From Candidatus Marinacidobacterales bacterium (lineage in GTDB: Bacteria > Acidobacteriota > Vicinamibacteria > Marinacidobacterales > SMYC01): DNA of 64,000 nt. Positions 11,949-43,090 of the stretch are shown one piece after another (the stretch's first letter is position 1; each line of letters begins with the position of its first letter). The stretch spans positions 8,220,911-8,284,910 of the forward strand of contig OZ253507.1 of the NCBI GenBank assembly GCA_965262245.1, given 5' to 3'. The notes beneath the pieces were generated by a model. That model searched no databases. It was not told where the DNA came from and saw only the letters and a list, made by a program, of their open reading frames with translations. A program made the position numbers and the translations under genes.

Positions 11949-13130
11949 TTGGGGCAGTTGAGGAGAGGAGCATTGCCCGTATCGATACCCCGCCTTGTCG
12001 TCATTGACTGTGAGACCACTGGCCTAGGGCAACATGACCGTATTGTAGAGATCGCGGCGATTACACTCGATCCGTTGACATGGGAACCGACGGATGAGTA
12101 CGACACCCTGATTAACCCAGAGCGCGATGTCGGCCCGGTGGGTATCCATGGAGTAACGGCATCAATGGTCGAGGCCGCGCCCACCTTTCCCGAGGTTGCC
12201 ACTGTACTGGCCCGCCGTCTCCATGGCTCGATCCTGGTCGCGCATAACCTTCCCTTCGATACCCGAATGCTGGGGTACGAGTTTGACCGGCTCGGAGTTG
12301 CGTTCAACGTCGGCTCAGGTCTGTGCACCCTCAGAGCCACTGGCGAGAAACTCGTAGCCGCGTGCCACAGGTTTGGGATCGCGCTGAACTTCCAGCATCG
12401 AGCGCTCGCCGACGCCCGCGCCACCGCCGCCCTTGCCAGAGAGGTCTTGGCCGGTGACGAGTCTGACTCCGAAGCGGCGACGGTCGGGTATGTCTCCGGA
12501 GTTGCCAATCCAAGGACTCTGCGACGGGAGGGCACGGATGTCGGAATTAGCGAGTTAGCACGCGTCGTGTCTCTCGCTTATTACCCGTCCTCGGATGAGG
12601 CGTTACTCCAGTACCTTGACGCCCTAGACTGGGCGCTGGACGATAACCACATCGATGATCAGGAACGCGCAGCCATTGATAAGTTCGCCGCGACACTTGG
12701 CATCTCCAACGAGGTTCGCCGGGAAGCGCACCGTGCCTATCTGGCGTCGATTATCGCTGCCGCCAAACGTGATGGCGTTGTCACCGAAGCCGAGCACCAC
12801 CTCATCAGTGAGGTCGCGGACACGCTGGGAGTCACCGGAGTGACCATCCCCGAGGTGACAGACCTCCCGGACACAACCAGCCTTCGCAAGGGGATGCGCG
12901 TCTGCTTCACGGGCGAGGCCACCGTCGCCGGGAACTCGATCTCCAGATCTTTCCTGGAGGAAACTGCCGCCCTGTCCGGAATGCAACCTGTTGGTTCCGT
13001 TACGAAGAACGGCTGTGATCTGCTGGTGGTGGCTGATTCCTCCAGTCAGTCGGGAAAAGCACGCAAAGCGCGCGACTACGGTATTCCGGTGATGACGGTG
13101 GTGGATTTCCTCAACAAAGCCGGGTCGTAG
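11949..13130 (+). CDS. DnaQ-like 3'-5' exonuclease (DEDDh) fused to a C-terminal BRCT domain
   Basis: VVIDCETTGL, ILVAHNLPFDTRML and HRALADARAT. C-terminal GMRVCFTGEA...GCDLLVVAD...ARKARDYGIPVMTVVDFL. Confidence 0.75.
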   Translation: MGQLRRGALPVSIPRLVVIDCETTGLGQHDRIVEIAAITLDPLTWEPTDEYDTLINPERDVGPVGIHGVTASMVEAAPTFPEVATVLARRLHGSILVAHNLPFDTRMLGYEFDRLGVAFNVGSGLCTLRATGEKLVAACHRFGIALNFQHRALADARATAALAREVLAGDESDSEAATVGYVSGVANPRTLRREGTDVGISELARVVSLAYYPSSDEALLQYLDALDWALDDNHIDDQERAAIDKFAATLGISNEVRREAHRAYLASIIAAAKRDGVVTEAEHHLISEVADTLGVTGVTIPEVTDLPDTTSLRKGMRVCFTGEATVAGNSISRSFLEETAALSGMQPVGSVTKNGCDLLVVADSSSQSGKARKARDYGIPVMTVVDFLNKAGS

Positions 13131-17280: not shown

Positions 17281-18153
17281 CCTCAGAACTGGATGCTCGA
17301 CGCGGACATTCGCGGGTTCTTCGATGCCATCGACCACGAATGGCTGATGAAGTTCGTCGAGCATCGGATAGCAGACCAGCGTGTGCTGCGACACATCAAG
17401 AAGTGGCTGAACGCTGGTGTGATGGAGGATGGGAAGCGAACACAGGCGGAGAAGGGAACGCCTCAAGGGGGAAGTGTATCCCCTTTGCTAGCGAACGTGT
17501 ATCTGCACTACGTGTTCGATCTATGGGTCCACCAGTGGAGGAAGAGGCATGCTCGCGGTGAAGTGATCATCGTGCGCTTTGCCGATGACTTCACGGTAGG
17601 ATTCCAGTACCGCGAGGACGCCGAGCGATTCCTGGAGGAACTCAGGGAGCGATTCCAGAGATTCCATCTTGAACTGCACCCCGAAAAGACGCGCCTGATG
17701 GAATTCGGCCGCTATGCTGCCGAGAACCGCAAACGGCGCGGCGAGGGGAAACCCGAGTCTTTCGACTTTCTTGGCTTCACACATACGTGTGACAAGACAA
17801 GGAATGGGAAATTCATAGTGCTTCGGCAGACGATGCGGAAACGGCTGCAGTCGAAACTTCGCGAGATCAAAATCGAGCTGAAGCGACGGCTGCACCATCC
17901 TGTCCCTGAGGTGGGGCAATGGCTAAGGTCGGTCATGCAGGGGCATTTCAACTATTATGCGGTGCCTCGTAACCAACGGAAACTCGGCGCTCTCAAGTAT
18001 CAGGTGTACCGTCTGTGGCTCCGTACGCTACGGCAGAGGAGCCAACGACACCGGATGACCGGGGAGCGCATGAACCGTTTGGCCGACCGCTGGTTTCCAC
18101 CTATTCGTATTTTGCACCCGTACCCCGAACAGCGACTGCGCGTCATGACCTGA
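17281..18153 (+). pseudogene. group II intron RT/maturase, C-terminal part (RT domains 3-7 plus X domain)
   Basis: LDADIRGFFDAIDHEWLMKFV...GTPQGGSVSPLLANVYLH...VRFADDFTVGF...FLGFTH. Confidence 0.8.
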
Positions 18154-20429: not shown

Positions 20430-22270
20430 CTCCTGCGCCTAATAGTACTCCTGTTCACACCCCGTCCTGTGCCAAAACTCGGCCTTTTTGAAATAGACCA
20501 TAAATCAGCAGCTTGGTGTCTGTGTTTGCGACCGGGCCAAGGGCCGTAGGCTTTACAATCGTCTGGCCCGAGGGAGCCTCTCCAAGTTCATAAGACGCAG
20601 GTGGCGTCGTCGGGTCGCGGCGCGAAGCAGCTGATCATGGCAGGTATAAACCGCGCAATGAACGCTGGATAGACTTTTTGCGGAGCACAGGTTCCGAAAG
20701 CAACCGCCGCGCCGCTGCCAGGAGTCGATCCTTCCAGGCAACACGTTCCCGCCAGTGGTCGGGGATAGCGTTCAGGCCGTAGAGGGCGCCGGCGAGCTGC
20801 CCCGTCACTGCTGCTACCGTATCGGCGTCGTCGGCCAGGTTGGCCGCGAGCAGCACCGCGCCGCGGAAGTCTCCGGTGCGGGCGACTGACCAGATGGCGG
20901 CTTCGAGCGTGTGAACGACGTACCCGCTGGAGCGGATCGTATCCCGTGTCCGTCCTCGCCAGCTGCCGGCTATGACCTGAGTGATTGCCGCCGCTCCCGT
21001 GAACCGTCTCGGAGCCAGAACGTCCGAGAACGGTGACCCGGCGATGGCGTCTGCCAGGAGTGCGCCGAACGCCCGGCAGGCGTCCACTGCTTCCTCGGCT
21101 CCGTGGGTCGTCCGGGACTGGTCGGCGGCTGCTGCGAGCAGGCGCGGCCGGTCGTGCCTGAACCGGAGCGCAACGGGGGCGAGCCGCATCAGCGAGCCGT
21201 TGCCTGCGCTCCAGGGATCGGTCGAACCCGCGACCGGGTCACCCGTCCGTAGGTACCGGGTGAGCGCTTGGCAGGTCGTGTTTCCGATGTCGAAGCAGTC
21301 TCCGCTCCACGAGTAGTCTCCGTCTCGCCACCACTTCACGAAACGGTCCATCAGGTCCCGGCAGTCGAGCGTCTTGGATTCCGCCAGGCTGTCGGCAAGG
21401 GCCAGCGCCATGGCCGTGTCGTCGGTCCAGGCACCGGCCGGCAGATCGAACGGGCCGCCACCGACCATGTCTTCTAGACGCGGCTGCGTATCGCGAGAGC
21501 AGAATTCGAGCGTCGTGCCGACCGCGTCGCCCACCGCCAGACCGAGGAAGGCCCCGAGCGCCCGGTCGTGAATGTCGTCCGCGGTCCGGGATGGAACCGA
21601 TGGTGCTTGTGCCGAACACTGCCTCACGTGGGCCAGCTGGGAGTCGTTCTCGATGGTCCCTTCGTGGGCGTCGCGCACGCGGCGGATCGCATCGTCCGGT
21701 TGCACGCCCAACTCCACCAGCAGGCGGGCTGTGATGGTCCCGGCGCGTCCCAGACCACCCCGGCAGTGGAGCAGCACGTCGAAGCCGAGCCGCAGCCGGT
21801 TCCTGATGGACTCACCGGTGGCCTTCCAGGCGTGCTCGAAGTCCTGTTCCGGTGCCTCTCCGTCGGGAATCGGGGCATGCCACCACTCCATGTGCCGGTC
21901 TCGAACCGCCCTCGGGAGATCGTGCACCTTTAGATAGGCGATTTCTTCGTGGGTGATCAGGCTGACCACCGCAGTCGCTTCCCAGCGCTGAATCGCGTCG
22001 AGGTCGGTGTCGAGATCCCGCTTCCAGGGCCCGGATATTGCGTAGCGATCGATCCTACCGGGGCACTGCGAGAAGCCGATCCGGCCCCGGCCGTCGCCCA
22101 GGGTCATCGCCGTGATGCGGAGTGGGTGGCTCTCGCTGGTTCTTGCCGTCGGCATGGACTCTATTCTCTAACGGGGCTGTGCTCCGCAAAAAAGAAGATT
22201 GGCCAGAAGCAGCCAAACATAGTAGGTCTAGAACGTGCAATCAACGCCGGATCGATTTATTGCGGAGCAC
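20430..22270. repeat. 1.8-kb direct repeat (segmental duplication), copy 1, carrying the PTP-ARH gene
   Basis: Near-identical to 29790..31510. One edge is a family-A terminal repeat and the other a palindromic TGTGCTCCGCAA element. Confidence 0.8.
20635..22155 (-). CDS. fusion protein: N-terminal dual-specificity/PTP-like phosphatase (CX5R) plus C-terminal ADP-ribosylglycohydrolase (DraG/ARH family), copy 1
   Basis: VLLHCRGGLGRAGTI is the PTP active-site loop. ARH motifs ALGAFLGLAVGDAVGTTLEF, GAWTDDTAMALALADSL, FDIGNTT and GNGSLMRLAPVAL. C-terminus diverges at the repeat edge. Confidence 0.75.
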   Translation of the reverse strand: MPTARTSESHPLRITAMTLGDGRGRIGFSQCPGRIDRYAISGPWKRDLDTDLDAIQRWEATAVVSLITHEEIAYLKVHDLPRAVRDRHMEWWHAPIPDGEAPEQDFEHAWKATGESIRNRLRLGFDVLLHCRGGLGRAGTITARLLVELGVQPDDAIRRVRDAHEGTIENDSQLAHVRQCSAQAPSVPSRTADDIHDRALGAFLGLAVGDAVGTTLEFCSRDTQPRLEDMVGGGPFDLPAGAWTDDTAMALALADSLAESKTLDCRDLMDRFVKWWRDGDYSWSGDCFDIGNTTCQALTRYLRTGDPVAGSTDPWSAGNGSLMRLAPVALRFRHDRPRLLAAAADQSRTTHGAEEAVDACRAFGALLADAIAGSPFSDVLAPRRFTGAAAITQVIAGSWRGRTRDTIRSSGYVVHTLEAAIWSVARTGDFRGAVLLAANLADDADTVAAVTGQLAGALYGLNAIPDHWRERVAWKDRLLAAARRLLSEPVLRKKSIQRSLRGLYLP

Positions 22271-23723: not shown

Positions 23724-23776
23724 GCGGCCAAGAGAAAACCTTCGCCGAATTGCGCAGCCAGTTCGCTCTCGACGTC

Positions 23777-25112
23777 GTAGTGTGCCAAAACCCGATCGAG
23801 CGACTCCATCATTATTAGAAGGCCATTCTCGGCGTTGAGAATGCGGAGACGGCTGTCGGGAAACGAGGCGAGCTCTGATAAGGTGCCAGCCGTCGGCAAA
23901 CTGCTTGGGAAACTATATTGGCGTTAAAGTCCGCTCACGCCGCGTCTCGATAGTAATATCGGAGCGTTCCGCCGAGGCGCTCCCGACATCGGATGCGACC
24001 GTCGGACCCCAGCGAATCCTGCGCCGAGCAGATGAGCTCGTTATCGAGACCTTGATGATTCCTCTCCAGATGATAATGGGCGACGAAAGCGCGGATACTC
24101 ACGCGGAGATGATTCTCTCCCAAGGGAATCATCCGACTAAGGCACTCGCTTTTGATGGACCGCACAAAGCGTTCGGCGTAGGCGTTCAAATTCGGACTCC
24201 TCACCGGCAGCTTCACCGTCTCCACGCCGACAGCACCGAGTGTGGCGCAGAATGATGCTGAAAAGAGCGGGTCGCGGTCGTGAATGAGAAACCGCGCGTC
24301 TCGAAGAAAACCGTCAATGGCGTCGGTCAGGTTTCTGGCCACTTGCCTCATCCAATCGTCGTAGGGCTGGTGACAGATGCCCGCGATCTCCACTCGGCGC
24401 GTCTTGAGGTCGATCACGAAGAGCACGAAGTATCGAACAAGCCCGCGAGACGTCAGCACTTCAACGGTGAAGAAGTCCGTCGCAGCTATGGCTCCCCAGT
24501 GAGCCTTCAGGAACGTACTCCAGGGCATTCGTTTACTTCGTTCATTCGCGGGCTCGATCCCATGCTCAGCGAGAATGCGCTTTACGGTGTTGCGGCCGAC
24601 GTCATGGCCGAGGTTTCGAAGAGCGCCGCAAATTCTCGTATAGCCCCAGGTTGAATTCTCGGTCGCCATCCTGACCACGAGTGCGCGTATCGTTTCCAGC
24701 ACACGAGGCCGTCCTGGCCCGCGGCGCTGGCTCCCGTCGTACTTTTTCGCGATCAGTTCTTTGTACCAGCGCAACAAGGTATCGGGCGTCACGAGATCCG
24801 CGATTTCCTTCAGGCCATCCCTACCCAACGTCCTCGCCTTCGCCGCGAGCCGCCGCCGCTGCGCATCGGTAAAACGTAGTCGGCGTCCACCCAGTTGTTC
24901 CCGAAAAACGCGATTCTCTTCTTTCAGGTATTCGATCGCGTCCTGTTGGAACCGGTTGACCCATCCGGCGAAGGCCATGACGAAGAACTGCCATAGGTAC
25001 GGTTGCATGGGTCCGGATTCTAGCCGCCCATCGAGCCCGGCGGGCTTGCTCCTGGACGCTTCAACGACCTGCCAACACTCAGCATCCGGCGTTGATCGAG
25101 TTTTGGCACACT
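23777..25112 (-). mobile_element. IS481-like insertion sequence, copy 2 (about 1.34 kb; TIR CCCCGTAGTGTGCCAAAAC(T/C)CGATC)
   Basis: CGTAGTGTGCCAAAACCCGATCGAGCG at 23777 and its reverse complement at 25085-25112. TIR is related to abundant repeat family A. Confidence 0.7.
23935..25008 (-). CDS. DDE transposase (HTH plus rve), IS481-like
   Basis: 357-aa intact ORF; ..[14 protein letters not shown].. core. Confidence 0.8.
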
Positions 25113-25324
25113 ACGGGGTGGAAGGTACTGTCAAATTGAGATCTTAAGTTCGGAGCGGGCCTCTAGATAATGGGGCTGGGGCGCACCGCGTTGCCAACAT
25201 CTAGGTGTCGGATCGGCCCTGAATGCCTCAACTTGGCAGTAGCCAAAGGGATGCTGACTGAGAACAAGCGAGAGAACAAGGCAGTGTAGAATGCCTTCGC
25301 CAAACTGACCATTAGGAAACAAAA

Positions 25325-28300
25325 TTGCCTGACGAAAATGCTGATTTTGATGTAACGCCATTCAACGCGTTCATGGCCGAACGCATGCGATGGGCGGGAC
25401 TTCTTGTGACGATCCAAGAGATTGCTGAGGATAACAAGGCGCTTGTCCATGATCTCTCGACATACGATCCGACCGTGGCTGTTCCATTCTTAGCAGGCCT
25501 CCTGACCTTGCCTGACTATCAATCACATTGCCTTCGCCTTGAAATACTAGTTGCGTTGGCCGTGGCATACTGCCACGGTCGGAAGAAAGCGAATGTCAAC
25601 GAAGCGCAGCGCTGGTTCTCTCAGATCGGAAAATCGCAATGCACGGCCTCCGAGGATCCAGCCGAGGATGTCTTTGTTTCCCTCATCCAGGACGACCGCG
25701 GAGATTACCGACTCTTCGAAGGTGTTTGGGAAGAGGCGGGTTTCTATACCCAGCGCGTTCTTGATGTCATTGCGACGATGCCCGACAGGGGGCAATTTGG
25801 GCAGATCAAGAAAAGCGTTCGCGCGATGCTCACTATCTCTGATTTGGTGTGCGACAAAGCTAAATTACAACGCTATCAGCTCGGCTCCGATAAGCTGCAC
25901 TCCGCGCTGTCGCCACGTAAACTTCCTGGGCGAAATGCCCTGATCTCTCGCGTGACGGTTACTTTCGCTGAGCTCCAAGGGCGTGGGGTCACACATTCCG
26001 ATATCGAGCCATTCCTGTTTCGTCCGCAAATGAAGAAGGATCTCACTGCGCAGAAAATAGGATGCAGCTATTTGGACCGCTATCCACTGATCATGCAGGC
26101 GGACACGCATCTGACAGTCGCACTTCCCTCAGCGCTATCAGTCGCAACGCGGAACTACGCGATTGCCAGCATCATCGAAGGCGGATTGAGCAAGACTTTC
26201 GATGACAGACTCGCAAGGAACTATGCGAAATTGCTTAGCGATACTCCTTTACTCGGCGGCCCCACGGGCGCGCCTGTTCAGTGGGAGACAGTGGGTGAGC
26301 ACCGATGGTCCAATTTCGAACTCAAGGTCGACGAGGGATACTACATCTCCTATCACATCCTTCTGCCATCGATCCAAACGCACACTAATGGCGGTTTCCT
26401 AACCGATTATCAGGTCGAAGACGCTCTGTTCGAAACGCTGGAAAGGTCGATCGATGACGTTATCGCAAAATTAGCGAAGCAACGCGACTTCAAGGAAGGC
26501 CTGGTCATCCTCGTTCGCTCCGGTTGGGGAAAGGCTTGTGCCATTCAAAGTATCGAGTTGAATAATCCCAAATGGCGTTTCCAAAACATGTCCGCAGCTG
26601 ACCTTGTACGACTGAGCAGGTTACGCGATATGAACCCAAACTACTTTTGGCGCATTCAAGATGGGCTGGAGGCTGTGACGAAGGCTGGTGTGAAGATCGT
26701 AAATCTCAACGGCATCCTGAACCTGATCGGCTGGGTGCGCAGCAATGACGGCCATCTCGTGCCACACGCGCGGCTCCCCGACGGCAAGATCTCGCCTGAA
26801 CAACCATTGATGCTCACCCCGCCGCTTAACCTATTGAGGGAGGTACGGGCTGAATCCGACCGGAGTTACGACCGACACAGCTCGTTCGACAACACCGGGA
26901 CGTGGCACCATGTCCAACGTGTCTCCCCCAACCCGTTCTTTGACAGTGAGAGCAGCCGCCGCGTCTATGGCTCTATGGATGATCTGCGCAGCGGAGCCCT
27001 GACATCCGTTTACGAGGGTGCGTTTCGTCTCTGGATCTCTATTGCCACACCGAACATCACCCAAAGAGAGGTCACGTATCGCCTTTGGGAAATGGCCAAT
27101 GAATGGCTGCATCGCATCGGCGCTGCTCTTGATGCACGCGCTGAACGTGTGCCGGAGACACGCAATCTCAAAGTCTACGTTGATTTCCGAGATGTCGATC
27201 CACCCAAGGAGGTAGACGGAAAGCCGACGCCAGAGGAGCTCATTCCGCTCGGCGCAATCGAGGCACATAGCGAGCCGAACGCTTGCAAAGCCGTCTTCGG
27301 GGTCGGTTTTTTGAGGGGCTTCCTCATCGCTGAAAACGTCGCCGAACGCCTATTTGTTCGAAATCTCGTGCGAGCCTTCCTACTCCTTCTTGGTATGGAG
27401 AATGGCGATGGCGAGGCCGAGGCCGAGGCAATTGAGTCTCGCGTCGTTAAAAACAACGAAGCGCGCAGCTTTCACTTCTTCCACGCCCAGAAATTCATGG
27501 ACCATCTTCGGGATACACTGCCCGATGAACTCATCGCGATTGATCCTATAGACGATGGCACTGTCAAGATTGGACTGGGTTGGCGTGTTATTGGGAAAGA
27601 CCAAGGCAACAAGATCGAAGGACGGGAGGCATGCACCGGCTTTCTGGAGAAGGTCGTCGATGTCTTGTTGGACGAAGTCATCAACGCGCTTGCCACGTTC
27701 GACCGTCTTTCCACGCTCAAAAGGCTTGTGACCAATTATGAGAGAGCAAGCACCGAGGAAGACCACTGGACGCGAACATCGGCAGCCCTTCTCGGCCTGT
27801 ACGGGCACGATCCAGGAACCGTTGATCGCATTGTCAAGCAGATGTCGAAGTTTTCCGGTGCCCGTGTTACAAGCCGCATTTTGAGTGAAATTGCTTTGTG
27901 CGTCTGCCCTTCGGAAGGCGGTACCAAGTTATCCAGCATCGAAATGAGCAAATTGATCGCACGCGCTGCACTGGTTGTCCGTATTGGCGGCCTGTCTGAT
28001 GCGATCTATTACAATGCGCTTGCCCCGGAAATTAAGATCTCTCCATTGGGTGATATTCTTTTTCGAGATGAGTTTGGTGAATTGGTGGTTGAACCGATGC
28101 TATCCCACGTGATGGCGGACAGATTTATTGCCAATGCCCCGTTGCAAGATAAAAACTATGAAAAGCCAAGAATCGTAACTAATACGCGAGGGATAATCAG
28201 TAACGAGTTTTGGGATATCTGGAAAAGTGAAATGGGATTCGATATAGATGAAGCGCGCAGCATTATAGACGCTTTAGAGCATAGAGGCATCGCGGAAAAC

Positions 28301-29119
28301 ACTGCGATTCTTGAGATCACTCAAGACGAATATTTCCCATTGGTATGCTCGGATTCGGTCCCCAAAGACGCGGCCGCAAGGTTCTTGAGCCAATTCTCGC
28401 TTGCAACGCGCCAGCGGTGGCAAGATGTTCCCGGAGGCTTTGCGTCCAAGGATATCTATCCGTGGCGTTTTGATCGACGACTGTCTTTCATGACGCGCCC
28501 TATTTTGAAAGTAGACGACAGCGATAACCCCCTGTTGGTTATTCCGCCCGCCGCATTACGAAATGGCTTTGCCTATGTCGTTGATGCTGCCTATAGAGGT
28601 CGGCTCAACCGGTCCTTTTTTCGCACGAAGGAGATGAAAGATACCTGGTGGGGCAAGGCACGTGAAGGTCACAGCTTCAATTCTGAAGTCGCGCTGGCGT
28701 TGTCAGACGCTGGCTGGCAAATCCGAAAAAATATAGGACTTCCAGAACTCCTTAATCGCAAGATGGAGCGGGATTGGGGGGATATTGATGTACTTGCTTG
28801 GAGGTCGGATCGGAACCAGGTACTGGTAATCGAGTGCAAAGATCTTTCCCAGGCGCGCAACTATTCAGAGATCGCTGCATTGCTTTCTGACTACCAAGGT
28901 ATCGAAGCTGACGGAGACGCGGACAGGCTCAAGAAGCATCTCAACCGAGTCTCGCTGCTCCAGGAAAACCAAGAACAGCTTCAGCGGGTTACCAACATTC
29001 AGCGGCCTCAGATTGTTTCCTGCCTTGTTTGTAGTGGTGTCGTACCGATGCAATACGCAAAAATTGACGCGTTAGCGGACACGCACGTCGGTACGATTGA
29101 GAAGATTCTAGCCTTGTAG
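25325..29119 (+). CDS. large (1264 aa) uncharacterised protein with a C-terminal PD-(D/E)xK-like nuclease motif
   Basis: C-terminal ..SEVALALSDAGW..DWGDIDVLAWRSDRNQVLVIECKDL.. fits E..D..ExK. No Walker A or other known motif was found in the first 1080 aa. Confidence 0.6.
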   Translation: MPDENADFDVTPFNAFMAERMRWAGLLVTIQEIAEDNKALVHDLSTYDPTVAVPFLAGLLTLPDYQSHCLRLEILVALAVAYCHGRKKANVNEAQRWFSQIGKSQCTASEDPAEDVFVSLIQDDRGDYRLFEGVWEEAGFYTQRVLDVIATMPDRGQFGQIKKSVRAMLTISDLVCDKAKLQRYQLGSDKLHSALSPRKLPGRNALISRVTVTFAELQGRGVTHSDIEPFLFRPQMKKDLTAQKIGCSYLDRYPLIMQADTHLTVALPSALSVATRNYAIASIIEGGLSKTFDDRLARNYAKLLSDTPLLGGPTGAPVQWETVGEHRWSNFELKVDEGYYISYHILLPSIQTHTNGGFLTDYQVEDALFETLERSIDDVIAKLAKQRDFKEGLVILVRSGWGKACAIQSIELNNPKWRFQNMSAADLVRLSRLRDMNPNYFWRIQDGLEAVTKAGVKIVNLNGILNLIGWVRSNDGHLVPHARLPDGKISPEQPLMLTPPLNLLREVRAESDRSYDRHSSFDNTGTWHHVQRVSPNPFFDSESSRRVYGSMDDLRSGALTSVYEGAFRLWISIATPNITQREVTYRLWEMANEWLHRIGAALDARAERVPETRNLKVYVDFRDVDPPKEVDGKPTPEELIPLGAIEAHSEPNACKAVFGVGFLRGFLIAENVAERLFVRNLVRAFLLLLGMENGDGEAEAEAIESRVVKNNEARSFHFFHAQKFMDHLRDTLPDELIAIDPIDDGTVKIGLGWRVIGKDQGNKIEGREACTGFLEKVVDVLLDEVINALATFDRLSTLKRLVTNYERASTEEDHWTRTSAALLGLYGHDPGTVDRIVKQMSKFSGARVTSRILSEIALCVCPSEGGTKLSSIEMSKLIARAALVVRIGGLSDAIYYNALAPEIKISPLGDILFRDEFGELVVEPMLSHVMADRFIANAPLQDKNYEKPRIVTNTRGIISNEFWDIWKSEMGFDIDEARSIIDALEHRGIAENTAILEITQDEYFPLVCSDSVPKDAAARFLSQFSLATRQRWQDVPGGFASKDIYPWRFDRRLSFMTRPILKVDDSDNPLLVIPPAALRNGFAYVVDAAYRGRLNRSFFRTKEMKDTWWGKAREGHSFNSEVALALSDAGWQIRKNIGLPELLNRKMERDWGDIDVLAWRSDRNQVLVIECKDLSQARNYSEIAALLSDYQGIEADGDADRLKKHLNRVSLLQENQEQLQRVTNIQRPQIVSCLVCSGVVPMQYAKIDALADTHVGTIEKILAL

Positions 29120-29154
29120 TTTACTACGGCAGGGAACACTTTAGAACGGTACTG

Positions 29155-29481
29155 TCAAGTTTTCCACGGCCTGACGGCCACCCCGAATGACGTGGTGAGC
29201 TTCGCTTCGATCAGATCAGCTAGAAAAGGATTCACTTCGATAATTGTCGGATACACACCTAGGAACTGGCAGGCCAGTGCGGTCGTGCCCGATCCTCCGA
29301 ACGGGTCGACGCACCGCACGACGGGAATTTCACTTTCTTCAACGGCCCGGGCAATCAGCTCCGGTGCATAGGCCTCCTTGAAATTCCGCCATGTCTGAAA
29401 CGGTAGCTCGTCTGCGCCGGCGTTGGTCCCCAACGATGTGATCGTTCTTCCTTGCGTCCATTCCTCAAAGGTTACAAACAT
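29155..29481 (-). pseudogene. C-terminal fragment of a beta-class N4/N6 DNA methyltransferase
   Basis: FKEAYAPELIARAVE...VVRCVDPFGGSGTTALAC has motif I. The DPPY/NPPY half is absent upstream. Stop codon lies inside a solo IS6 end. Confidence 0.6.
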
Positions 29482-29789: not shown

Positions 29790-31510
29790 GAGAAAGAACG
29801 CGGTGTTCCCCGTCCTGTGCCAAAACTCGGCCTTTTGAAACAGACCATAATATCAGCAGCTTAGTGTCTGTGCTTGCGACCGGGTCAAGAGCCGTGCTTC
29901 GGCTACCCACCCAACTTCTACCGGTCGGCAAAGGGTTCCGACAGCAACCGCCGCGCCGCTGCCAGGAGTCGATCCTTCCAGGCAACGCGTTCCCGCCAGT
30001 GGTCGGGGATGGCGTTCAGGCCGTAGAGGGCGCCGGCGAGCTGCCCCGTCACTGCTGCTACCGTATCGGCGTCGTCGGCCAGGTTGGCCGCGAGCAGCAC
30101 CGCGCCGCGGAAGTCTCCGGTGCGGGCGACTGACCAGATGGCGGCTTCGAGCGTGTGAACGACGTACCCGCTGGAGCGGATCGTATCCCGTGTCCGTCCT
30201 CGCCAGCTGCCGGCTATGACCTGAGTGATTGCCGCCGCTCCCGTGAACCGTCTCGGAGCCAGAACGTCCGAGAACGGTGACCCGGCGATGGCGTCCGCTA
30301 GGAGCTCGCCGAACGCCCGGCAGGCGTCCACTGCTTCCTCGGCTCCGTGGGTCGTCCGGGACTGGTCGGCGGCTGCTGCGATCAGGCGCGGCCGGTCGTG
30401 CCTGAACCGGAGCGCAACGGGGGCGAGCCGCATCAGCGAGCCGTTGCCTGCGCTCCAGGGATCGGTCGAACCCGCGACCGGATCACCCGTCTGCAGGTAT
30501 CGAGCGAGTGCTTCTTGGATTGTGTTTCCGATGTCGAAGCAGTGTCCGGTGCACGAGTAGTCTCCGTCCTGCCACCACTTCACGAAACGGGCCATCAGGT
30601 CCCGGCAGTCGAGCGTCTTGGATTCCGCCAGGCTGTCGGCAAGGGCCAGCGCCATGGCCGTGTCGTCGGTCCAGGCACCGGCCGGCAGATCGAAGGGGCC
30701 GCCACCGACCATGTCTTCTAGATGCGGCTGCGTATCGCGAGAGCAGAATTCGAGCGTCGTGCCGACCGCGTCGCCCACCGCCAGACCGAGGAAGGCCCCG
30801 AGCGCCCGGTCGTGGATGTCGTCCGCGGTCCGGGATGGAACCGATGGTGCTTGTGCCGAACACTGCCTCACGTGGGCCAGCTGGGAGTCGTTCTCGATGG
30901 TCCCTTCGTGGGCGTCGCGCACGCGGCGGATCGCATCGTCCGGTTGCACGCCCAACTCCACCAGCAGGCGGGCTGCGATGGTCCCGGCGCGTCCCAGACC
31001 ACCCCGACAGTGGAGCAGCACGTCGAAGCCGAGCCGCAGTCGGTTCCTGATGGACTCGCCGGTGGCCTTCCAGGCGTGCTCGAAGTCCTGTTCCGGCGCC
31101 TCTCCGTCGGGAATCGGGGCATGCCACCACTCCATGTGCCGGTCTCGAACCGCCCTCGGGAGATTGTGCACCTTCAGATAGGCGATTTCTTCGTGGGTGA
31201 TCAGGCTGACCACCGCAGTCGCTCCCCAGTGCTGAATCGCGTCGAGGTCGGCGTCGAGATCCCGCTTCCAGGGCCCGGATATTGCGTAGCGATCGATCCT
31301 ACCGGGGCACTGCGAGAAGCCGATCCGGCCCCGGCCGTCGCCCAGGGTCATCGCCGTGATGCGGAGTGGGTAGCTCTCGCTGGTTCTTGCCGTCGGCATG
31401 GACTCTATTCTCTAACGGGGCTGTGCTCCGCAAAAAAGAAGATTGGCCAGAAGCAGCCAAACATAGTAGGTCTAGAACGTGCAATCAACGCCGGATCGAT
31501 TTTATTGCGG
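29790..31510. repeat. 1.8-kb direct repeat, copy 2
   Basis: See 20430..22270. Confidence 0.8.
29918..31399 (-). CDS. PTP-like phosphatase plus ADP-ribosylglycohydrolase fusion, copy 2
   Basis: About 97% identical to copy 1, with a different C-terminal tail. Confidence 0.75.
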   Translation of the reverse strand: MPTARTSESYPLRITAMTLGDGRGRIGFSQCPGRIDRYAISGPWKRDLDADLDAIQHWGATAVVSLITHEEIAYLKVHNLPRAVRDRHMEWWHAPIPDGEAPEQDFEHAWKATGESIRNRLRLGFDVLLHCRGGLGRAGTIAARLLVELGVQPDDAIRRVRDAHEGTIENDSQLAHVRQCSAQAPSVPSRTADDIHDRALGAFLGLAVGDAVGTTLEFCSRDTQPHLEDMVGGGPFDLPAGAWTDDTAMALALADSLAESKTLDCRDLMARFVKWWQDGDYSCTGHCFDIGNTIQEALARYLQTGDPVAGSTDPWSAGNGSLMRLAPVALRFRHDRPRLIAAAADQSRTTHGAEEAVDACRAFGELLADAIAGSPFSDVLAPRRFTGAAAITQVIAGSWRGRTRDTIRSSGYVVHTLEAAIWSVARTGDFRGAVLLAANLADDADTVAAVTGQLAGALYGLNAIPDHWRERVAWKDRLLAAARRLLSEPFADR

Positions 31511-33190: not shown

Positions 33191-36040
33191 TCAGGCATTT
33201 ATTCGAGTACCTTTCCCGCCATGTACGGATGGCTCAGCGCACCACTGTTTTCGCAGCAGGTCTAGTCCACCCTTTAGACCTGGGTCGATTTGCAGTACGC
33301 TAGTAATTCCGAACAGCAGTTCGCGGTCAAGCGCCTTGCGCGTCTCGTCGCGCCACGCCTCGTTAGCGGGTAGGAACTCGCGATCCTTGAAGTCATCGAA
33401 GATCGCACGGCAGTGATCCACCTGCTCCTCCGTCAAGGTGCGGGGATCGAGCACGGGAAGATCTGGCAGCTTGGAGATCGTGAGTATGGATCGACCTTCC
33501 TGCTGTCTCGTGCCGTGCCACCAGAACAGGATCAGTCCTAGCGTCGAGTTGCACCACAGCAGTAGCGGGATCGCGTACTTCGGTTCGCGCGGGATTACGT
33601 TCGGCCATGCCCTGCCGCCGAGACACTTCTCCGGTGTGAGACACATTGCCAAACTCTGTGAGTTGAGCTGGAAGTCTCGGTTGGAATGGAGACGGGATGC
33701 CGTTCGACGCCACGTCTTGACCGCATGAGACTTCATCTTCGGACGCACTTCGCCACATCTGTCTGGCGGAACGACAAACTGCCGTTCTCGCTCAGCGTTG
33801 TGTCCCCACAACGCGGGATAGGTGGGAATTTCATCCTTGCGGATGGGGCGGATATCGAACGCACCCCGAGGCAGGGCATTGCTTGCGGGTGGCTTGCCGT
33901 TGATGTCCCTATCAACGAGCCCTCGTTCTGCAACATTCCCTAGCTGGGTGACGGCAATGCCTCCCGACGCTAGCGATTGGGGGAACACGAGCTCCCCGCA
34001 AGCTAGTGCCCGTGCTGCATTTCCCACGCTCTCGCTAAGCACTCCTGCTCCGCATGGGTCGAGAAGGCTGCCGTTAAAGGCGCTGCGGATTGCCGGAGCG
34101 TTCGACGTCCCCTGTCCTGTCTCCCTTGCAGTCAGAGCCGATTCCAGCAACCCTGCTGGCCGGTAGGACAGATTCGTGAAACGCATTCCGCCTCCGCTCC
34201 GTTTATTGGCTACGACAAGGCACTCGGCCATGCCCGTGTCTGCCGAGAAAGCCCTTGCCGTCGTCCCCGTCGCGGCGATGGACAGGATGTGGATATCGGA
34301 ATAGCTTGCCGCCAGCGCCTTTCTCGCCTTCTCCCATGCCTGGCCTCGTGCAAGTGAGGATGGCAGTACCAAGGCCAGCACGCCTCCATCTCTCAGCTTG
34401 CGGTGGCCGAGATCCATGAAGTTCGACGCCAGCCCAGCGTTGCCGTGACCGAACTCGGGCTTGCACTTGCCGAGCATTCTCGACATAGCCCTCTGTTCGC
34501 TAAGAGGAGTGCCGAATCCCGCGAAGGATGGGATCGGTATCTCGGCGTGGCCTCCCTCATGGTTTGTGGGCCTCGTGAACGGGGGGTTCATGATGACCAG
34601 ATCGCAGGAGTTGTCCTTGATCGTGACGGAATGCTCGCTACGGCTCTCCGATTCTGTACCGCCCATAGACGCGCCCGTGGCGAACAGGGAGTAGGAATGG
34701 TCGGAATCGAGAAGGTCGAGTGCTCCGATGTGTGTACTGCCCGCGCCATCGATGCCGTAGGGCATCGTGTGGATCTGGGATTTGCCGTAGGCGAGCGACG
34801 GGTGGGAGCTGGACAGCATGGAACAGGTGAGATGCGTTGCGGCGGGCATGATGTCCAGCCCGCTCAGGACGCGCTCCATCAGGGCTTGATGCAAGTCCTT
34901 GTCATCGCAGCCGGCACGTCGATAGCGCCGATACACTGCCCGCTGCGCGGCCGAGAGCAAGGCTCCCGTGCCGCAGGCGAAATCCGCAATCCGCAGCCCT
35001 TCTATCGCGACCCGGTCCGACCAGTCCACGTCCAGCTGCTCGACCGCTAGTTCGGCGAGGAGGCAGGCTGACTCGGGCAATGTGTAGAAGGTGGCCAGGA
35101 ACTTCCGACCCGTGATAAGGGTCTGGAACATCCTCCCAGTAAGGTCGTGATAGGTCGTCGCGCCCAGCTGCGCCAAGTCGGAGATGGACTCCGCGATGCG
35201 GTTCATGACCGGCGGAACCGCCTTGATCGGCAATTCCTTCACCAAATCACTGGCGACGCTGAAGATCGGCCAGTAGTTGACTTCGAGAATCGCGTTCCAT
35301 ACGCCCAGAAGCGTCCCCTTGTCGATAGATCCCGCTAACGGAACCGGCGGGATCTGTTGCTGCCTTTCGATCGCTGCATGAAACACGAAGGCCGAGACGC
35401 AGATAGCCGCTGCCATGCGCTCGGTCTGCTTGCCTTCTCCTTGGTGCAGGTCACGGGCGATCCGCGCCAGTGGGCCCTCACCGGCGTGCTCGGCCAGCAG
35501 TCCCGCCGCGTTCCGTACCACTTGTTCAAGGGCTTCCGTCCCTCGCGCCAGTTGCCGTTCCGAGAGGGACAGGTATTCGATGGCATCAGCAAGGTCGTCC
35601 ACGCCCCCCTCAAGCCACTTCCTCTCCGGCGGCCAGCGGATGCTTTCTCCCTTGGAATCCAGGTAATGCGTGGCGTAGCGCAACGCTGCGCTTTCGATGG
35701 TTTCGAGGTCACCTGTCTTGAGGCTCTCCGGCAAGACAACGGAGAGCACACCTTCGATGTCCTCTCCGGTACTGTGCAAGCTCGTCCCGAGCCTGGCGGT
35801 CGCGTCTTGATCGACCGTGTGTGCGGGGGCGAACTCCGTCTCCACGATCACTGGCTGGCGGCGAGGCGGGGCTATGAGAATGTCCGGCCTCTTGCCTGTC
35901 CCCGTGCCTGGCACAGCTTGCTGAATCACGTGGGTCCGTTCGGCGTGGACAGTGTTGTCGTTCCAGCCTGGGTTTCGTCGTCTCAGCGCACGAGCCAGCG
36001 CACCGTTCGCTTGCGGCTCCGTGTTGCGCGGGCCGCTCAT
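33191..36040 (-). CDS. gamma-class N6-adenine DNA methyltransferase with long N- and C-terminal extensions; candidate MmeI-like Type IIG/IIL enzyme
   Basis: Motif I LRIADFACGTGALL and motif IV DLVIMNPPFTR. N-terminal RPDILIAPPRRQPVIVETEF is a possible nuclease motif that lacks the canonical Lys. 949 aa. Confidence 0.6.
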   Translation of the reverse strand: MSGPRNTEPQANGALARALRRRNPGWNDNTVHAERTHVIQQAVPGTGTGKRPDILIAPPRRQPVIVETEFAPAHTVDQDATARLGTSLHSTGEDIEGVLSVVLPESLKTGDLETIESAALRYATHYLDSKGESIRWPPERKWLEGGVDDLADAIEYLSLSERQLARGTEALEQVVRNAAGLLAEHAGEGPLARIARDLHQGEGKQTERMAAAICVSAFVFHAAIERQQQIPPVPLAGSIDKGTLLGVWNAILEVNYWPIFSVASDLVKELPIKAVPPVMNRIAESISDLAQLGATTYHDLTGRMFQTLITGRKFLATFYTLPESACLLAELAVEQLDVDWSDRVAIEGLRIADFACGTGALLSAAQRAVYRRYRRAGCDDKDLHQALMERVLSGLDIMPAATHLTCSMLSSSHPSLAYGKSQIHTMPYGIDGAGSTHIGALDLLDSDHSYSLFATGASMGGTESESRSEHSVTIKDNSCDLVIMNPPFTRPTNHEGGHAEIPIPSFAGFGTPLSEQRAMSRMLGKCKPEFGHGNAGLASNFMDLGHRKLRDGGVLALVLPSSLARGQAWEKARKALAASYSDIHILSIAATGTTARAFSADTGMAECLVVANKRSGGGMRFTNLSYRPAGLLESALTARETGQGTSNAPAIRSAFNGSLLDPCGAGVLSESVGNAARALACGELVFPQSLASGGIAVTQLGNVAERGLVDRDINGKPPASNALPRGAFDIRPIRKDEIPTYPALWGHNAERERQFVVPPDRCGEVRPKMKSHAVKTWRRTASRLHSNRDFQLNSQSLAMCLTPEKCLGGRAWPNVIPREPKYAIPLLLWCNSTLGLILFWWHGTRQQEGRSILTISKLPDLPVLDPRTLTEEQVDHCRAIFDDFKDREFLPANEAWRDETRKALDRELLFGITSVLQIDPGLKGGLDLLRKQWCAEPSVHGGKGTRINA

Positions 36041-41094: not shown

Positions 41095-43032
41095 CTAACC
41101 GCGATCGGGCGCCGGCTTCTGCTCCTCGAGCTCCATCCACCGCTCGAGTGCCTGCTCTAGGGACGTCTTGGCCGCCTCGAGCTCCTCGAGCACAGGCTCG
41201 ACCTCTTCAAAAGGCTGTGCGTAGAAATCAGACGCGCCCGTGCGCTCCTCGAGCACCGCGACTTCTTGCTCCAACGCTTCTATCTTCTCCGGGAGAGCGT
41301 CGAGCTCGAGCTTGAGCTTGTAGCTCAGCTTGGTCGCTGCCCGAGGCGGCTCGGGGCGCGGCTTCTGCTTCGCGTCGTCTCGGGGCGCTCGCGTGGGCCC
41401 TTCCTTCACCGCCAGCGCCCGGCCCTGCCGCGCCCAATCGCTGTAACCACCAACGTAATGCTGGAGCACGCCGCCCTCCTCGAAAACGAGCGTGCTCGTC
41501 ACGACGTTGTCGAGGAAGGTGCGGTCGTGGCTGACGAGGATCAACGTCCCTTTGTAGTCCACGAGCTGCTGTTCCAAAACCTCCAGCGTCTCGAGATCCA
41601 AATCGTTCGTCGGCTCGTCGAGCACGAGCAGGTTGGACGCGCGCGCGAACAGGCGCGCAAGGACGAGCCGGTTGCGCTCGCCTCCCGAAAGCGCCGCGAC
41701 TTTGGACCGCGTCCGCTTGGGACTGAACAGGAATGCGCCGAGGTAGCCGATGACGTGGCGATCGTTCCCCCCATTCGTCACGCTGCGCACAAACTCGCCG
41801 CCGTCGCTTACTGTCTCGGCGACGGTCTTGTCAGGGACGAGCTCCCGTCTCAGCTGATCGAAATAGGCGACCTCGAGCTTCGTCCCGAGCTTCACCGTGC
41901 CGGCCTCGGGCTCGAGCTCTCCGAGCATGATACGCAAGAGCGTGGTCTTCCCGACGCCGTTATTTCCGATGAGCCCTAGCCGGCCGCCGCGAAGAAGCTC
42001 GAGCGAGAGGCCCTCGAACAAGCGGTCCTCTCCATAGCCGTGAGCGACATTCTCGAGCTCGATCACTCGGCGACCGGAGCTCCGCGCCCGCTCGACACGC
42101 ATCCGAGCCGTGCCCTCGCGTTGCGCCCGCTCCCCATGGACCTTCCTCATCGCTTCGAGCGCACGCACGCGCCCTTCGTTTCTCGTGCGCCTCGCCTTGA
42201 TGCCTTGCCGAACCCACGCCTCTTCCTCCGAAAGGCGTTTGTCGAACAAAGCCTCGGCGCGCTCTTCAGCTTCGAGCGCCGCCTCTTTCCGGCGAAGAAA
42301 GTTCTGATAATCCCCCGGCCAGCTCGTGAGCGTCGCCCGATCGAGCTCGACGATTCGAGTCGCGATCCGCTCGAGAAGCGTGCGGTCATGGGTCACGAAG
42401 AGCAAGCTGCCCGAGAACGCTCGCACCCGTTCCTCGAGCCACTCGATCGTATCGAGATCGAGATGGTTCGTCGGCTCGTCGAGCAACAAAAGCTCGGGAC
42501 GGGAGACCAGCGCGCGCGCGAGGGCCGCTCGGCGCCGCCAGCCTCCCGATAGCGCGCTCATCTTTCGATCCGCGGGCAAGCCCATCTCGAGCATCAAGCT
42601 CTCCACGCGCTTCTCGAGATCCCATCCGGACTCGGCGTCGATACGGTGCTGAAGCTTCTCGAGCTCGCGGAGTCCAGGGGCATCCAGATTCTGCGTCGTA
42701 AGGCGTTGATACTCGTCGATCAAAAGCTGCAGTGAGCGCAACCCAGCCGCGACGTGATCGCGAACTGTGGCGTCGCCGGCTTCGGGGAGTGTCTGCGCGA
42801 GCTGGCTTATGCGGAGGTCCGCTTTGTGTTTGATTTGGCCGGCATCGGGCTTCTCGTCTCCGGCGATGAGTCGGAGCAAGGTCGTTTTACCGGCGCCGTT
42901 GCGCCCGATGAGGCACACCCGCTCACCCGGCTCGAGCACGAGAGAGGCCTCGCGCAATATGGGGTGGTCGCCGATCTCGTAGCTTACAGCGTCGACGGTC
43001 AGAAGCGGCATCAGCGCCGGGATTATAGACAT
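41095..43032 (-). CDS. ABC-F family ATPase (two ABC domains, linker, C-terminal coiled coil; Uup/EttA-like)
   Basis: Two Walker A (GRNGAGKTT, GNNGVGKTT), two LSGG signatures, and coiled-coil tail. Confidence 0.85.
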   Translation of the reverse strand: MSIIPALMPLLTVDAVSYEIGDHPILREASLVLEPGERVCLIGRNGAGKTTLLRLIAGDEKPDAGQIKHKADLRISQLAQTLPEAGDATVRDHVAAGLRSLQLLIDEYQRLTTQNLDAPGLRELEKLQHRIDAESGWDLEKRVESLMLEMGLPADRKMSALSGGWRRRAALARALVSRPELLLLDEPTNHLDLDTIEWLEERVRAFSGSLLFVTHDRTLLERIATRIVELDRATLTSWPGDYQNFLRRKEAALEAEERAEALFDKRLSEEEAWVRQGIKARRTRNEGRVRALEAMRKVHGERAQREGTARMRVERARSSGRRVIELENVAHGYGEDRLFEGLSLELLRGGRLGLIGNNGVGKTTLLRIMLGELEPEAGTVKLGTKLEVAYFDQLRRELVPDKTVAETVSDGGEFVRSVTNGGNDRHVIGYLGAFLFSPKRTRSKVAALSGGERNRLVLARLFARASNLLVLDEPTNDLDLETLEVLEQQLVDYKGTLILVSHDRTFLDNVVTSTLVFEEGGVLQHYVGGYSDWARQGRALAVKEGPTRAPRDDAKQKPRPEPPRAATKLSYKLKLELDALPEKIEALEQEVAVLEERTGASDFYAQPFEEVEPVLEELEAAKTSLEQALERWMELEEQKPAPDRG

Positions 43033-43090
43033 TTCGTTGCGATGGGCGTCCACGGGGGAGTCGAGTTACGATGAAATTCCGGCAGTTGTC

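Follow-up and report, generated by a model that had tools for sequence, protein, structure and literature searches.

A probable stand-alone anti-phage gene of the Upx family between IS6-derived repeats in an Acidobacteriota-type genome

The window, by which we mean the whole 64-kb stretch of DNA that was analysed, contains an uninterrupted ORF of 1264 aa with IS6-type repeats on both sides of it. What does this ORF encode, and was it brought to its place by these repeats? As an earlier note on this DNA had it, this is the largest intact gene of the window; the next-longest ORF has 949 aa. We find that it is very probably an intact member of the Upx family, that is, a stand-alone anti-phage defence protein with no NTPase domain, acquired horizontally as a single-gene cassette. 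On the other hand, we see the role of the IS6-derived repeats in this acquisition as doubtful. The coordinates of all features are collected in Table 1.

Table 1. Features of the Upx locus and of the complete IS6-family element in the window
Feature	Position	Strand	Basis
IS481/IS3-like insertion sequence abutting the MITE	23769..25122	-	29-nt inverted repeats at 23769-23797 and 25094-25122
MITE-like IS6 derivative, 120 bp	25124..25243	+	inverted repeats GGTACTGTCAAATTGAG / GCTACTGCCAAGTTGAGGC
Leader conserved with the Upx gene	25244..25324	+	DNA similarity to related loci, AGGAAA ribosome-binding site
Upx homologue, intact	25325..29119	+	ORF; PADLOC, NCBIfam and 9wuf_A matches
Upx N-terminal domain, aa 1-517 (= SeUpx NTD 1-515)	25325..26875	+	limits of PMC13099982 via 9wuf_A alignment
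Upx middle domain, aa 518-719 (= SeUpx MD 516-714)	26876..27481	+	limits of PMC13099982, colinear 9wuf_A alignment
Upx C-terminal domain, aa 720-1264	27482..29116	+	AlphaFold2 model, Foldseek, alignment to 9wuf_A
Predicted PD-(D/E)xK nuclease core, about aa 1115-1264	28667-29116	+	predicted fold around the motif
Predicted catalytic residues D1155, E1170, K1172	28787-28789, 28832-28834, 28838-28840	+	alignment to SeUpx, coordinates checked by translation
Solo IS6-derived end, 43 nt, 29 nt 3' of the Upx stop	29148..29190	+	IS6 inverted-repeat consensus in the first 14 nt
Methyltransferase remnant, 108 codons	29155..29481	-	Pfam, PADLOC, homologue N-termini
Complete IS6-family element, 806 bp	60849..61654	+	inverted repeats GGTATTGTCAAATTGAGC and GGTATTGTCAAGTTGACG

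Family assignment and the C-terminal nuclease domain

The ORF is a 3795-nt frame that starts with TTG and stops at 29117-29119. The start codon is supported by the N-termini of homologues (MPDEN..), which align to the TTG position, and by the AGGAAA ribosome-binding site 5 nt upstream. The protein matches the PADLOC Upx profile PDLC02221 (residues 1-1263 against profile positions 1-1270 of 1271, E=0, 1770.5 bits) and the NCBIfam model NF042954, "anti-phage protein Upx" (residues 19-1261 against positions 1-1239 of 1240, 1820.2 bits). Since the curated equivalog cut-off of NF042954 is 1900, that is, 80 bits above this score, the NCBI annotation pipeline would not name the protein Upx. The Salmonella Upx of PDB entry 9wuf_A was matched by HMMER in a single colinear stretch (27-1258 against 27-1266, 1048.8 bits).

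The ORF had been described as an orphan, which it is not. Among the scored candidates we found at least 299 homologues at E<=1e-5, some of which are named "anti-phage protein Upx" by NCBI or UniRef, and 974 representative clusters are matched by the N-terminal domain alone. Among the 120 matches listed, identity ranges from 51 to 86% and all carry the Pfam domain Upx-like (PF28173); our local Pfam copy gave no PF28173 match to the window protein itself. This copy also yielded no NTPase, helicase, SIR2, TIR or HEPN domain in the ORF, in agreement with the earlier note, which had seen no such signature. The proposal of an "uncharacterised defence or addiction module" can be kept as far as the defence gene is concerned; the family is covered by PADLOC, NCBIfam and Pfam models and by the structure 9WUF, and we found no support for addiction. 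Upx being a known and structurally characterised family, the window copy would, judged by its sequence, be an ordinary new member.

The protein was compared with SeUpx of Salmonella enterica NCTC6026, the structure of which was solved by cryo-EM (PDB 9WUF). The two are of the same length class (1272 aa in SeUpx), share a colinear order of N-terminal (NTD), middle (MD) and C-terminal (CTD) domains, have no NTPase domain and are encoded by a single gene with no conserved partner. However, identity is only about 38% in the NTD stretch compared and 55% in the CTD over aa 1051-1258, and SeUpx comes from an enterobacterium whereas the host of the window copy is an Acidobacteriota-type environmental bacterium. 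The domain limits were taken from PMC13099982 and transferred by sequence alignment; our structural model covers aa 701-1264.

By sequence comparison and structure prediction, the last ~150 residues are a PD-(D/E)xK nuclease core with its catalytic residues D1155, E1170 and K1172 intact. The D...ExK arrangement that had been pointed out here (GDIDVLAWRSD / VLVIECKDL) is indeed present, in a block that is nearly identical in SeUpx (GDIDxLAWRSDRNQVLVIECKDLS, with identical D, E and K), and its residues align to the catalytic D1161, E1176 and K1178 of the solved homologue. All three are invariant, both in the 36 of 36 close and in the 91 of 91 diverse family members. Structure prediction had been proposed as a check on this part of the protein. 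In the AlphaFold2 model of aa 701-1264 (pLDDT 84.3, pTM 0.81), a PD-(D/E)xK core is predicted, with a helix-strand-strand-strand-helix-strand arrangement around the motif, and the sole significant match in a Foldseek search against the PDB was 9wuf, "Cryo-EM structure of Upx" (E 1e-43, TMq 0.77).

Proposed mechanism

What would such a protein do in the cell? Upx is attributed to Gao et al. (2020, Science 369:1077) by reference 17 of PMC13601566 (Evans et al.), and there are two mechanistic papers on it, both from 2026 (PMC13099982, PMC13601566). According to both, Upx protects E. coli as a single gene. SeUpx is a Mg-dependent 3'-5' ssDNA exonuclease that loses defence with E1176A or E1176A/K1178A (PMC13099982); E1176A abolishes defence as well as terminase-induced toxicity (PMC13601566). 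SeUpx and the divergent HpUpx (Hydrobacter penzbergensis) and PbUpx (Pyrinomonadaceae bacterium) are activated by diverse large terminases via the ATPase domain (PMC13601566). The two papers disagree on the trigger (terminase or gp16) and on the outcome (cell death or direct immunity).

By analogy with these homologues, the N-terminal and middle part of the window protein would act as a sensor that prevents activity as long as no phage protein is bound, and the NTD is the proposed site of this sensing. The best-supported trigger would be the ATPase domain of the phage large terminase, with the ejection protein gp16 as the proposed alternative. Binding of the trigger may then release the Mg2+-dependent nuclease, which in homologues acts in vitro in the 3'-5' direction on single-stranded DNA and replication intermediates, and phage multiplication would be stopped either directly or through toxicity to the cell. 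Such a sensor mechanism appears to be family-wide and probably applies to the window Upx; the activation of the divergent HpUpx and PbUpx by diverse terminases supports this. HpUpx is 16% identical to SeUpx (PMC13601566), which makes it much more distant from SeUpx than the window protein is.

A different model was put forward by Zhou et al., in which a gp16-like ejection protein relieves the inhibition that the MD exerts on a minimalist nuclease in the NTD, both NTD and CTD degrade single-stranded replication intermediates of the phage, and the infected cell survives. The SeUpx NTD has exonuclease activity and is described as a weak second nuclease, defence is lost with D127A/R129A, gp16 was found to bind in a pull-down and to activate, and cells grew at MOI 3 (PMC13099982). 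On the other hand, a whole-genome screen of PhiV-1 identified the terminase gp19 as the sole activator, gp16 was without toxicity, and HpUpx partly defends against T4, which lacks gp16 (PMC13601566). Of the SeUpx residues D122, D127, R129, E147 and D173, three (D127, R129 and D173) are retained in the window protein, in which position 147 is D and position 122 is Q. These NTD positions, said to be catalytic, are poorly conserved across the family and perhaps do not serve to define it (among 91 members, N outnumbers D by 55 to 14 at position 127, 34 have N at position 147, and position 122 is not conserved), whereas the CTD triad is found in all 91. The residues of the NTD that are nearly invariant are others, namely the EDPAED motif (E110, D111, E114, D115) and E136. 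We regard two cooperating nucleases and direct immunity as possible for the window protein, but unlikely, and favour the terminase-sensing reading.

In outline, Upx resembles the antiviral STAND NTPase Avs2, which also combines a large sensor of the phage large terminase with an effector that stops infection (PMC13601566). However, Avs2 tetramerises, whereas Upx has no NTPase and a monomeric apo form, and there is no sequence or structural homology between Upx and Avs (PMC13601566). The window protein does not belong to Avs2.

A probable single-gene cassette next to IS6-derived ends

The closest genomic relatives of the window are MAGs of Ca. Marinacidobacterales and Vicinamibacterales. At the DNA level, related loci resemble the window from 25248 (locus L002), 25264 (L003) or 25179 (L005) onwards and up to 29106-29129; with five related loci, the similarity is limited to about -146/-14 to +10 around Upx, and the flanks all differ. 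The called neighbours of Upx differ in L001-L003 and the flanking DNA differs in L001-L006, and no conserved partner gene was found among these loci. At 52.6%, the G+C content of Upx (GC3 58.5%) is the lowest among the 13 genes checked (whole window, 58.8%), which argues for horizontal acquisition. In summary, Upx is very probably a horizontally acquired single-gene cassette that consists of leader and gene, at about 25244-29129.

Next, we asked whether IS6 elements have moved this cassette. The repeat GGTACTGTCAA was located on the plus strand at 25124 and at 29148. If one mismatch is tolerated, the window has 8 copies where 0.44 would be expected, a number that none of 100 shuffles reaches. 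Both ends match the inverted repeats of the complete, IS240-type element of the window, whose transposase at 60889..61593 belongs to the IS6 family (DDE_Tnp_IS240, PF13610, 129.7 bits) and which is 99.6% identical to a copy in L001. In contrast to IS6/IS26 elements, the copies that flank Upx are non-autonomous remnants (120 bp and 43 nt). The earlier note had placed solo IS6 ends of the same orientation at 25121 and 29148. It was right about the IS6 ends, their orientation and the solo end on the right; the left one lies at 25124 and is not solo. Its inverted counterpart lies at 25243 (GCTACTGCCAAGTTGAGGC), which makes it part of a discrete MITE-like IS6 derivative. This MITE aligns with a similar 119-bp element at 52242..52360, and a related genome has a full copy of it at another site (L005 17620-17740; 86% identity over 121 nt). 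The right-hand end has no inverted partner nearby; its 43 nt share 98% identity with the left end of an IS6 derivative of 390 bp (L003 532-921), which in that locus abuts the Upx leader.

No 8-bp target-site duplication was found at the MITE; the flanks GGGTGGAA and CAAAGGGA differ, the left flank being the end of another IS. The transposase of this IS481/IS3-like element (23935..25008) contains rve_3 and HTH_32 domains and reaches 88 bits with the NCBIfam IS481 model, which is below the cut-off. As a whole, the segment around the Upx locus is rich in repeats and insertion sequences, and the genome is of Acidobacteriota type.

Direct orientation of flanking copies is the usual layout of an IS26 pseudo-compound transposon, and delivery by IS6 is a possible part of the history of Upx. 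Specifically, Upx could be the cargo of an IS26-style pseudo-compound transposon or translocatable unit, the flanking copies of which have decayed to the MITE on the left and the 43-nt end on the right, and which the IS6 transposase of the window could mobilise in trans. The distance from Upx to the two directly oriented elements is 82 nt on the upstream and 29 nt on the downstream side, and with ~10 such ends per 64 kb it is unlikely by chance that two fall within 100 nt of the ends of one gene (a rough estimate is 1e-3). L003 has an independent junction 59 nt upstream, with a left end that is the same 43-nt variant as the one 3' of the window Upx. However, the junction positions differ (-82 in the window and in L005, -59 in L003), three of the six related loci (L002, L004 and L006) lack an IS6 end in the vicinity of Upx, and the right element breaks off after 43 nt. 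Moreover, in L002, L004 and L005 it is repeats of other families that border on Upx, and the region may just be prone to insertion and recombination. The claim of an "IS-delivered cargo" is thus not borne out: the ends have the same orientation, the left one is a self-contained MITE, no target duplication is readable, and half of the related loci do without an IS6 end. We consider this route of delivery doubtful.

Slightly less likely still is a version in which the leader and gene (~3.9 kb) were moved within the acidobacterial lineage as a minimal unit by non-autonomous IS6 derivatives, with the 120-bp MITE and the 390-bp derivative, in direct orientation, forming the ends of a translocatable unit of the IS26 kind and a resident IS6 transposase acting in trans. 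If true, pairs of MITEs would be a vehicle that shuffles single-gene defence systems.

Several related copies of the gene are broken. In L001, which is otherwise 99.97% identical to the window, Upx is interrupted by a 166-nt MITE at codon ~854; the L002 copy has an in-frame TAG at codon 45, and the L005 copy a 441-nt internal deletion. Selection for the gene has thus not been constant in the lineage. Potentially, the window copy could also be a silent or decaying relic that has lost its defence function: besides the broken copies, two insertions have reshaped the DNA upstream of it, and no sigma-70-type promoter was detected there by a scan that is, however, centred on E. coli. We find this improbable, with the whole reading frame open, every invariant family residue that we checked present, and the ribosome-binding site and leader conserved. 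Furthermore, a second assembly (L007) has the same intact right-hand arrangement as the window. Our preferred reading remains that of an intact defence gene.

The methyltransferase remnant

An unrelated gene, for a DNA methyltransferase, has been cut short by the right IS6-derived end. Residues 1-97 of the remnant (nt 29191-29481) are derived from the methyltransferase, and its last 11 codons and stop come from the 43-nt end; the TGA of this 108-aa ORF lies inside the IS6 repeat at 29148, just as had been noticed before. It is very improbable that Upx and this neighbour once were a restriction-modification-like or addiction pair with a methyltransferase that has since decayed, since this reading has in its favour only that the two are adjacent (the Upx stop is 36 nt away) and that the Upx CTD has a restriction-endonuclease fold, whereas the IS6-derived end separates the two and created the junction, the genes are convergent, L001-L006 hold no methyltransferase fragment, Upx defends E. 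coli as a single gene (PMC13099982, PMC13601566), and an intact lethal nuclease beside a dead methylase would not be tolerated in a true pair. The absence of any trace of it from these six loci and the differing called neighbours also led us to reject the remnant as a module partner of Upx.

The remnant scores 25.5 bits with Pfam N6_N4_Mtase, below the cut-off of 26.7, and 46 bits with PADLOC MTase_II (profile positions 63-134 of 481), and its Met1 aligns with the N-termini of homologues. In beta-class N6/N4 methyltransferases, motif IV (DPPY) comes before motif I (FxGxG), and motif I lies near the C-terminus. The description of the gene as a truncated beta-class DNA methyltransferase is therefore correct as to the truncation and wrong as to the class: motif I (DPFGGSGTT) is at residues 59-67 of this N-terminal fragment, and a full-length homologue of 444 aa is also motif-I-first, with FGGSGTT near residue 85 and then SPPY near residue 278.

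Family identity of the largest gene

The 1264-aa ORF is the longest within the 64 kb (the runner-up has 949 aa), as the earlier note had said, and its sequence places it clearly in the known Upx family of single-protein anti-phage defence nucleases. The PADLOC 'Upx' model matches it over the whole length (E = 0, 1770.5 bits, residues 1-1263 against profile positions 1-1270 of 1271), and the NCBIfam equivalog 'anti-phage protein Upx' gives 1820.2 bits (19-1261 against 1-1239 of 1240). Note that the curated cut-off of the latter is 1900 bits; being 80 bits short, the gene would be called a 'hypothetical protein' by the NCBI pipeline. In a PDB search the sole match was 9wuf_A (1272 aa; 1048.8 bits, a single stretch of 27-1258 against 27-1266), from the cryo-EM structure of the Salmonella enterica homologue SeUpx (PMC13099982), to which the window protein is about 38-55% identical over the two stretches compared. 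Upx is attributed to Gao et al. 2020, at least by reference 17 of PMC13601566.

The description of this gene as an orphan had to be given up. In a collection of 5.8 billion proteins, at least 299 homologues were found among the scored candidates at E <= 1e-5. The 120 matches listed are mostly full length, with 51-86% identity; PF28173 ('Upx-like') is recorded for all of the listed homologues, some of which bear the name Upx. The N-terminal 520 residues as the sole query matched 974 representative clusters. Since PF28173 is so widely recorded, the lack of a significant match in our local copy of Pfam-A reflects the age of that copy and not an orphan status. In the same copy we found no NTPase, helicase, SIR2, TIR or HEPN domain in the ORF, in agreement with the reading by eye. 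The proposal of an uncharacterised defence gene was thus right as to the kind of gene, a defence nuclease, and wrong in calling it uncharacterised, and the importance of the gene beyond its annotation is little.

The TTG start is credible because AGGAAA lies 5 nt upstream, the leader and the TTG are also found in related loci, and the N-termini of homologues (MPDEN..) line up with it. A scan of 24900-29600 for sigma-70 promoters and terminators returned nothing upstream of the gene, sigma-70 models being uninformative for an acidobacterial host. A search of PLSDB with the protein gave just 8 records, none full-length, so Upx is not notably plasmid-borne in that database.

Coordinates of features in the window and in related Upx loci (L001-L005)
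Feature	Position	Strand	Remarks
~166-nt MITE copies	8222-8390, 10784-10949, 11311-11476, 44326-44494, 46183-46349, 53168-53333, 53922-54087
PDC-S48 candidate	11949..13130	+	DEDDh (RNase_T) exonuclease fused to TerB-like domain; PADLOC 330 bits
IS481/IS3-like element	23769-25122		abuts 120-bp MITE
MITE-like IS6 derivative, 120 bp	25124-25243		inverted partner of GGTACTGTCAA at 25243
Upx ORF	25325..29119	+	1264 aa, TTG start, uninterrupted
N-terminal residues aa 110-136 and 173	25652-25732 and 25841-25843	+	family alignments
Catalytic D1155 / E1170 / K1172 codons	28787-28789 / 28832-28834 / 28838-28840	+	alignment to SeUpx, translation
Solo IS6-derived end, 43 nt	29148-29190		right of Upx
METHYLTRANSFERASE remnant (DNA methyltransferase)	29155..29481	-	N-terminal 97 residues of enzyme
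949-aa methyltransferase-like protein	33191..36040	-	weak methyltransferase / mad2 / PglX-like matches only
HEC-07 candidate, 537 aa	37855..39468	-	PADLOC 111 bits; no Pfam match
166-nt MITE in L001 Upx	L001 12560-12725		window-equivalent 27883
L002 similarity	window 25248-29106		88% identity
L003 similarity	window 25264-29122		91% identity
L004 similarity	window 25311-29122		86% identity
L005 similarity	window 25179-29129		441-nt deletion; 87% and 96% identity, two pieces

Nuclease domain, N-terminal part and trigger

The motif seen by eye (GDIDVLAWRSD...VLVIECKDL) is present in the translation, and several lines of evidence show that the PD-(D/E)xK assignment of the C-terminus is correct. 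In SeUpx, the core of the C-terminal domain runs from residue 1121 to 1272; strand beta-2 carries D1161, and beta-3 carries E1176 and K1178 (PMC13099982). These residues align to D1155, E1170 and K1172 of the window protein within an almost identical 25-residue block, and the triad is invariant in 36 of 36 close homologues as well as in all 91 full-length proteins that represent 50%-identity clusters. Residues 701-1264, modelled with AlphaFold2 (pLDDT 84.3, pTM 0.81), have a helix-strand-strand-strand-helix-strand arrangement surrounding the motif. When this model was compared with the PDB using Foldseek, 9wuf was the sole significant match (E 1e-43, TMq 0.77, 44% identity); the runner-up was Card1, a restriction-endonuclease-fold effector, at a marginal E of 0.064.

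Transferring the SeUpx limits via the 9wuf_A alignment gives an N-terminal domain of aa 1-517, a middle domain of 518-719 and a C-terminal domain of 720-1264. For the N-terminal domain of SeUpx a 'minimalist nuclease' site was reported, consisting of D122, D127, R129, E147 and D173 (PMC13099982); the window counterparts are Q122, D127, R129, D147 and D173. Conservation of this site is poor among 91 diverse Upx members: there is no consensus at 122, 55 members have N and 14 have D at 127, and at 147 the counts are 44 for D, 34 for N and 5 for E. On the other hand, the acidic EDPAED (E110/D111/E114/D115) and E136 are nearly invariant in the same set, a difference relevant to the debate over the dual-nuclease and the sensor model.

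SeUpx protects E. coli from PhiV-1, is a monomeric Mg2+-dependent 3'-5' exonuclease acting on ssDNA and replication intermediates, and loses its defence upon E1176A/K1178A mutation (Zhou et al., PMC13099982). In the study of Evans et al. [quoted passage not shown] No toxicity was seen in the whole-genome screen of Evans et al. with gp16, which Zhou et al. had proposed as the trigger. By analogy with these homologues, aa 1 to about 719 of the window protein would form a sensor part coupled to a nuclease effector at aa ~1115-1264, with a phage terminase as the most probable trigger. Whether activation would lead to toxicity or to direct immunity is disputed. As an Acidobacteriota-type member of the family, the window protein could help comparative tests of the disputed trigger.

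Related loci and flanking elements

MAGs of Ca. Marinacidobacterales and Vicinamibacterales are the closest relatives at the genome level. DNA similarity of the window to related Upx loci is found only in the gene and its short leader, and all flanks are different. Several copies of the gene are broken. In L001, which is the same strain (99.97% identical over 17286-27887), it is interrupted near codon 854 by a 166-nt MITE (GGTGCTTCCGCCATCAAGTG...CAGCGGAAGCACC); in the L002 gene codon 45 is an in-frame TAG (L002 7950-7952), and the L005 gene has a 441-nt internal deletion (L005 10961). The G+C content of Upx (52.6%) is the lowest among 13 genes checked, compared with 58.8% for the window. Taken together, the gene-limited similarity, differing flanks, broken copies and low G+C describe a one-gene defence cassette that was acquired horizontally and lies in a repeat-dense region changing at a fast pace. 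The repeated breakage and re-flanking of Upx by MITEs and IS in close relatives offers a snapshot of fast defence-gene turnover. A second assembly, L007, has the PTP-ARH gene, the methyltransferase remnant and Upx arranged as in the window. MITEs of about 166 nt with terminal inverted repeats, of the same family as the L001 disruptor, occur in at least seven copies in the window.

Of the solo IS6 ends that the earlier note placed on both sides of Upx, the right one is indeed solo, while the left one is paired with 25243 in a MITE. The motif GGTACTGTCAA occurs at 25124 and 29148, both (+); allowing one mismatch, the window has 8 copies where 0.44 would be expected. The motif makes up the inverted repeats of a complete element of 806 bp (60849-61654) whose transposase is DDE_Tnp_IS240, i.e. 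IS6 family. The left MITE resembles a 119-bp element at 52242-52360, has a complete copy elsewhere in a related genome and shares its Upx-proximal junction (-82) with L005; its target-site duplication is unreadable, as its left end is adjoined by another IS. The right end shares 98% identity with the left end of an IS6 derivative of 390 bp; this derivative lies in L003, directly next to the Upx leader and 59 nt before the start. No IS6 ends were found near Upx in L002, L004 and L006. Given the directly oriented derivatives on both sides and the independent L003 junction, delivery of Upx by IS6 is possible.

A GGCACTGTCAA site at 27557, within the Upx coding region, was set aside as a near-match arising by chance, its similarity to the IS6 inverted repeat ending after 12 nt. 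The window also holds a partial second IS6 copy at 55613-56267, which shares 97% identity with the right ~655 bp of the 60849-61654 element; another IS6 end, at 11854 (-), is degenerate. Repeats of ~60-120 nt beginning CCCCGTCCTGTGCCAAAACTCG (19375-19455, 20460-20540, 29808-29888, 33042-33103 (-) and others) form a family that resembles the ends of the IS481-like element; in L004 and L005 copies lie directly against Upx, as does a similar end in L002.

Methyltransferase remnant and other genes

The TGA of the methyltransferase remnant lies inside the IS6 repeat, as had been noticed, and its last 11 codons derive from the 43 IS6-derived nucleotides. Met1 of the remnant lines up with the start of homologous proteins, residues 59-67 hold motif I (DPFGGSGTT), and the best PADLOC MTase_II match covers profile positions 63-134 of 481. 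In a homologue of full length (444 aa), FGGSGTT is followed by SPPY about 190 residues on; this motif-I-first order contradicts the 'beta-class' label. A role as partner of Upx was rejected, as none of the six other Upx loci (L001-L006) has a methyltransferase fragment.

Further candidates for defence genes are found close by. One of them, at 11949..13130, strongly matches the PADLOC phage-defence candidate PDC-S48. The HEC-07 candidate and the adjoining gene for the 949-aa protein may constitute another defence locus. A PADLOC 'mad3' match at 41095..43053 was discarded as a defence gene, being an ordinary ABC-F ATPase according to Pfam. An RVT_1 reverse-transcriptase ORF at 17293..18153 (+) seems N-terminally shortened relative to a 465-aa call in L001; an Rfam scan of 15000-34000 gave no match, hence no group II intron RNA beside this fragment and no riboswitch. 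A fusion of a PTP-SAK dual-specificity phosphatase with an ADP-ribosylglycohydrolase is present in two ~97% identical copies, 20635..22155 (-) and 29918..31399 (-). They form direct repeats of ~1.5 kb, separated by 9244 bp, on either side of the block of OMP, IS, Upx and methyltransferase remnant. The fusion gene has a G+C of 67%, far above that of Upx; L002 also has a copy, some 4 kb upstream of its Upx gene.
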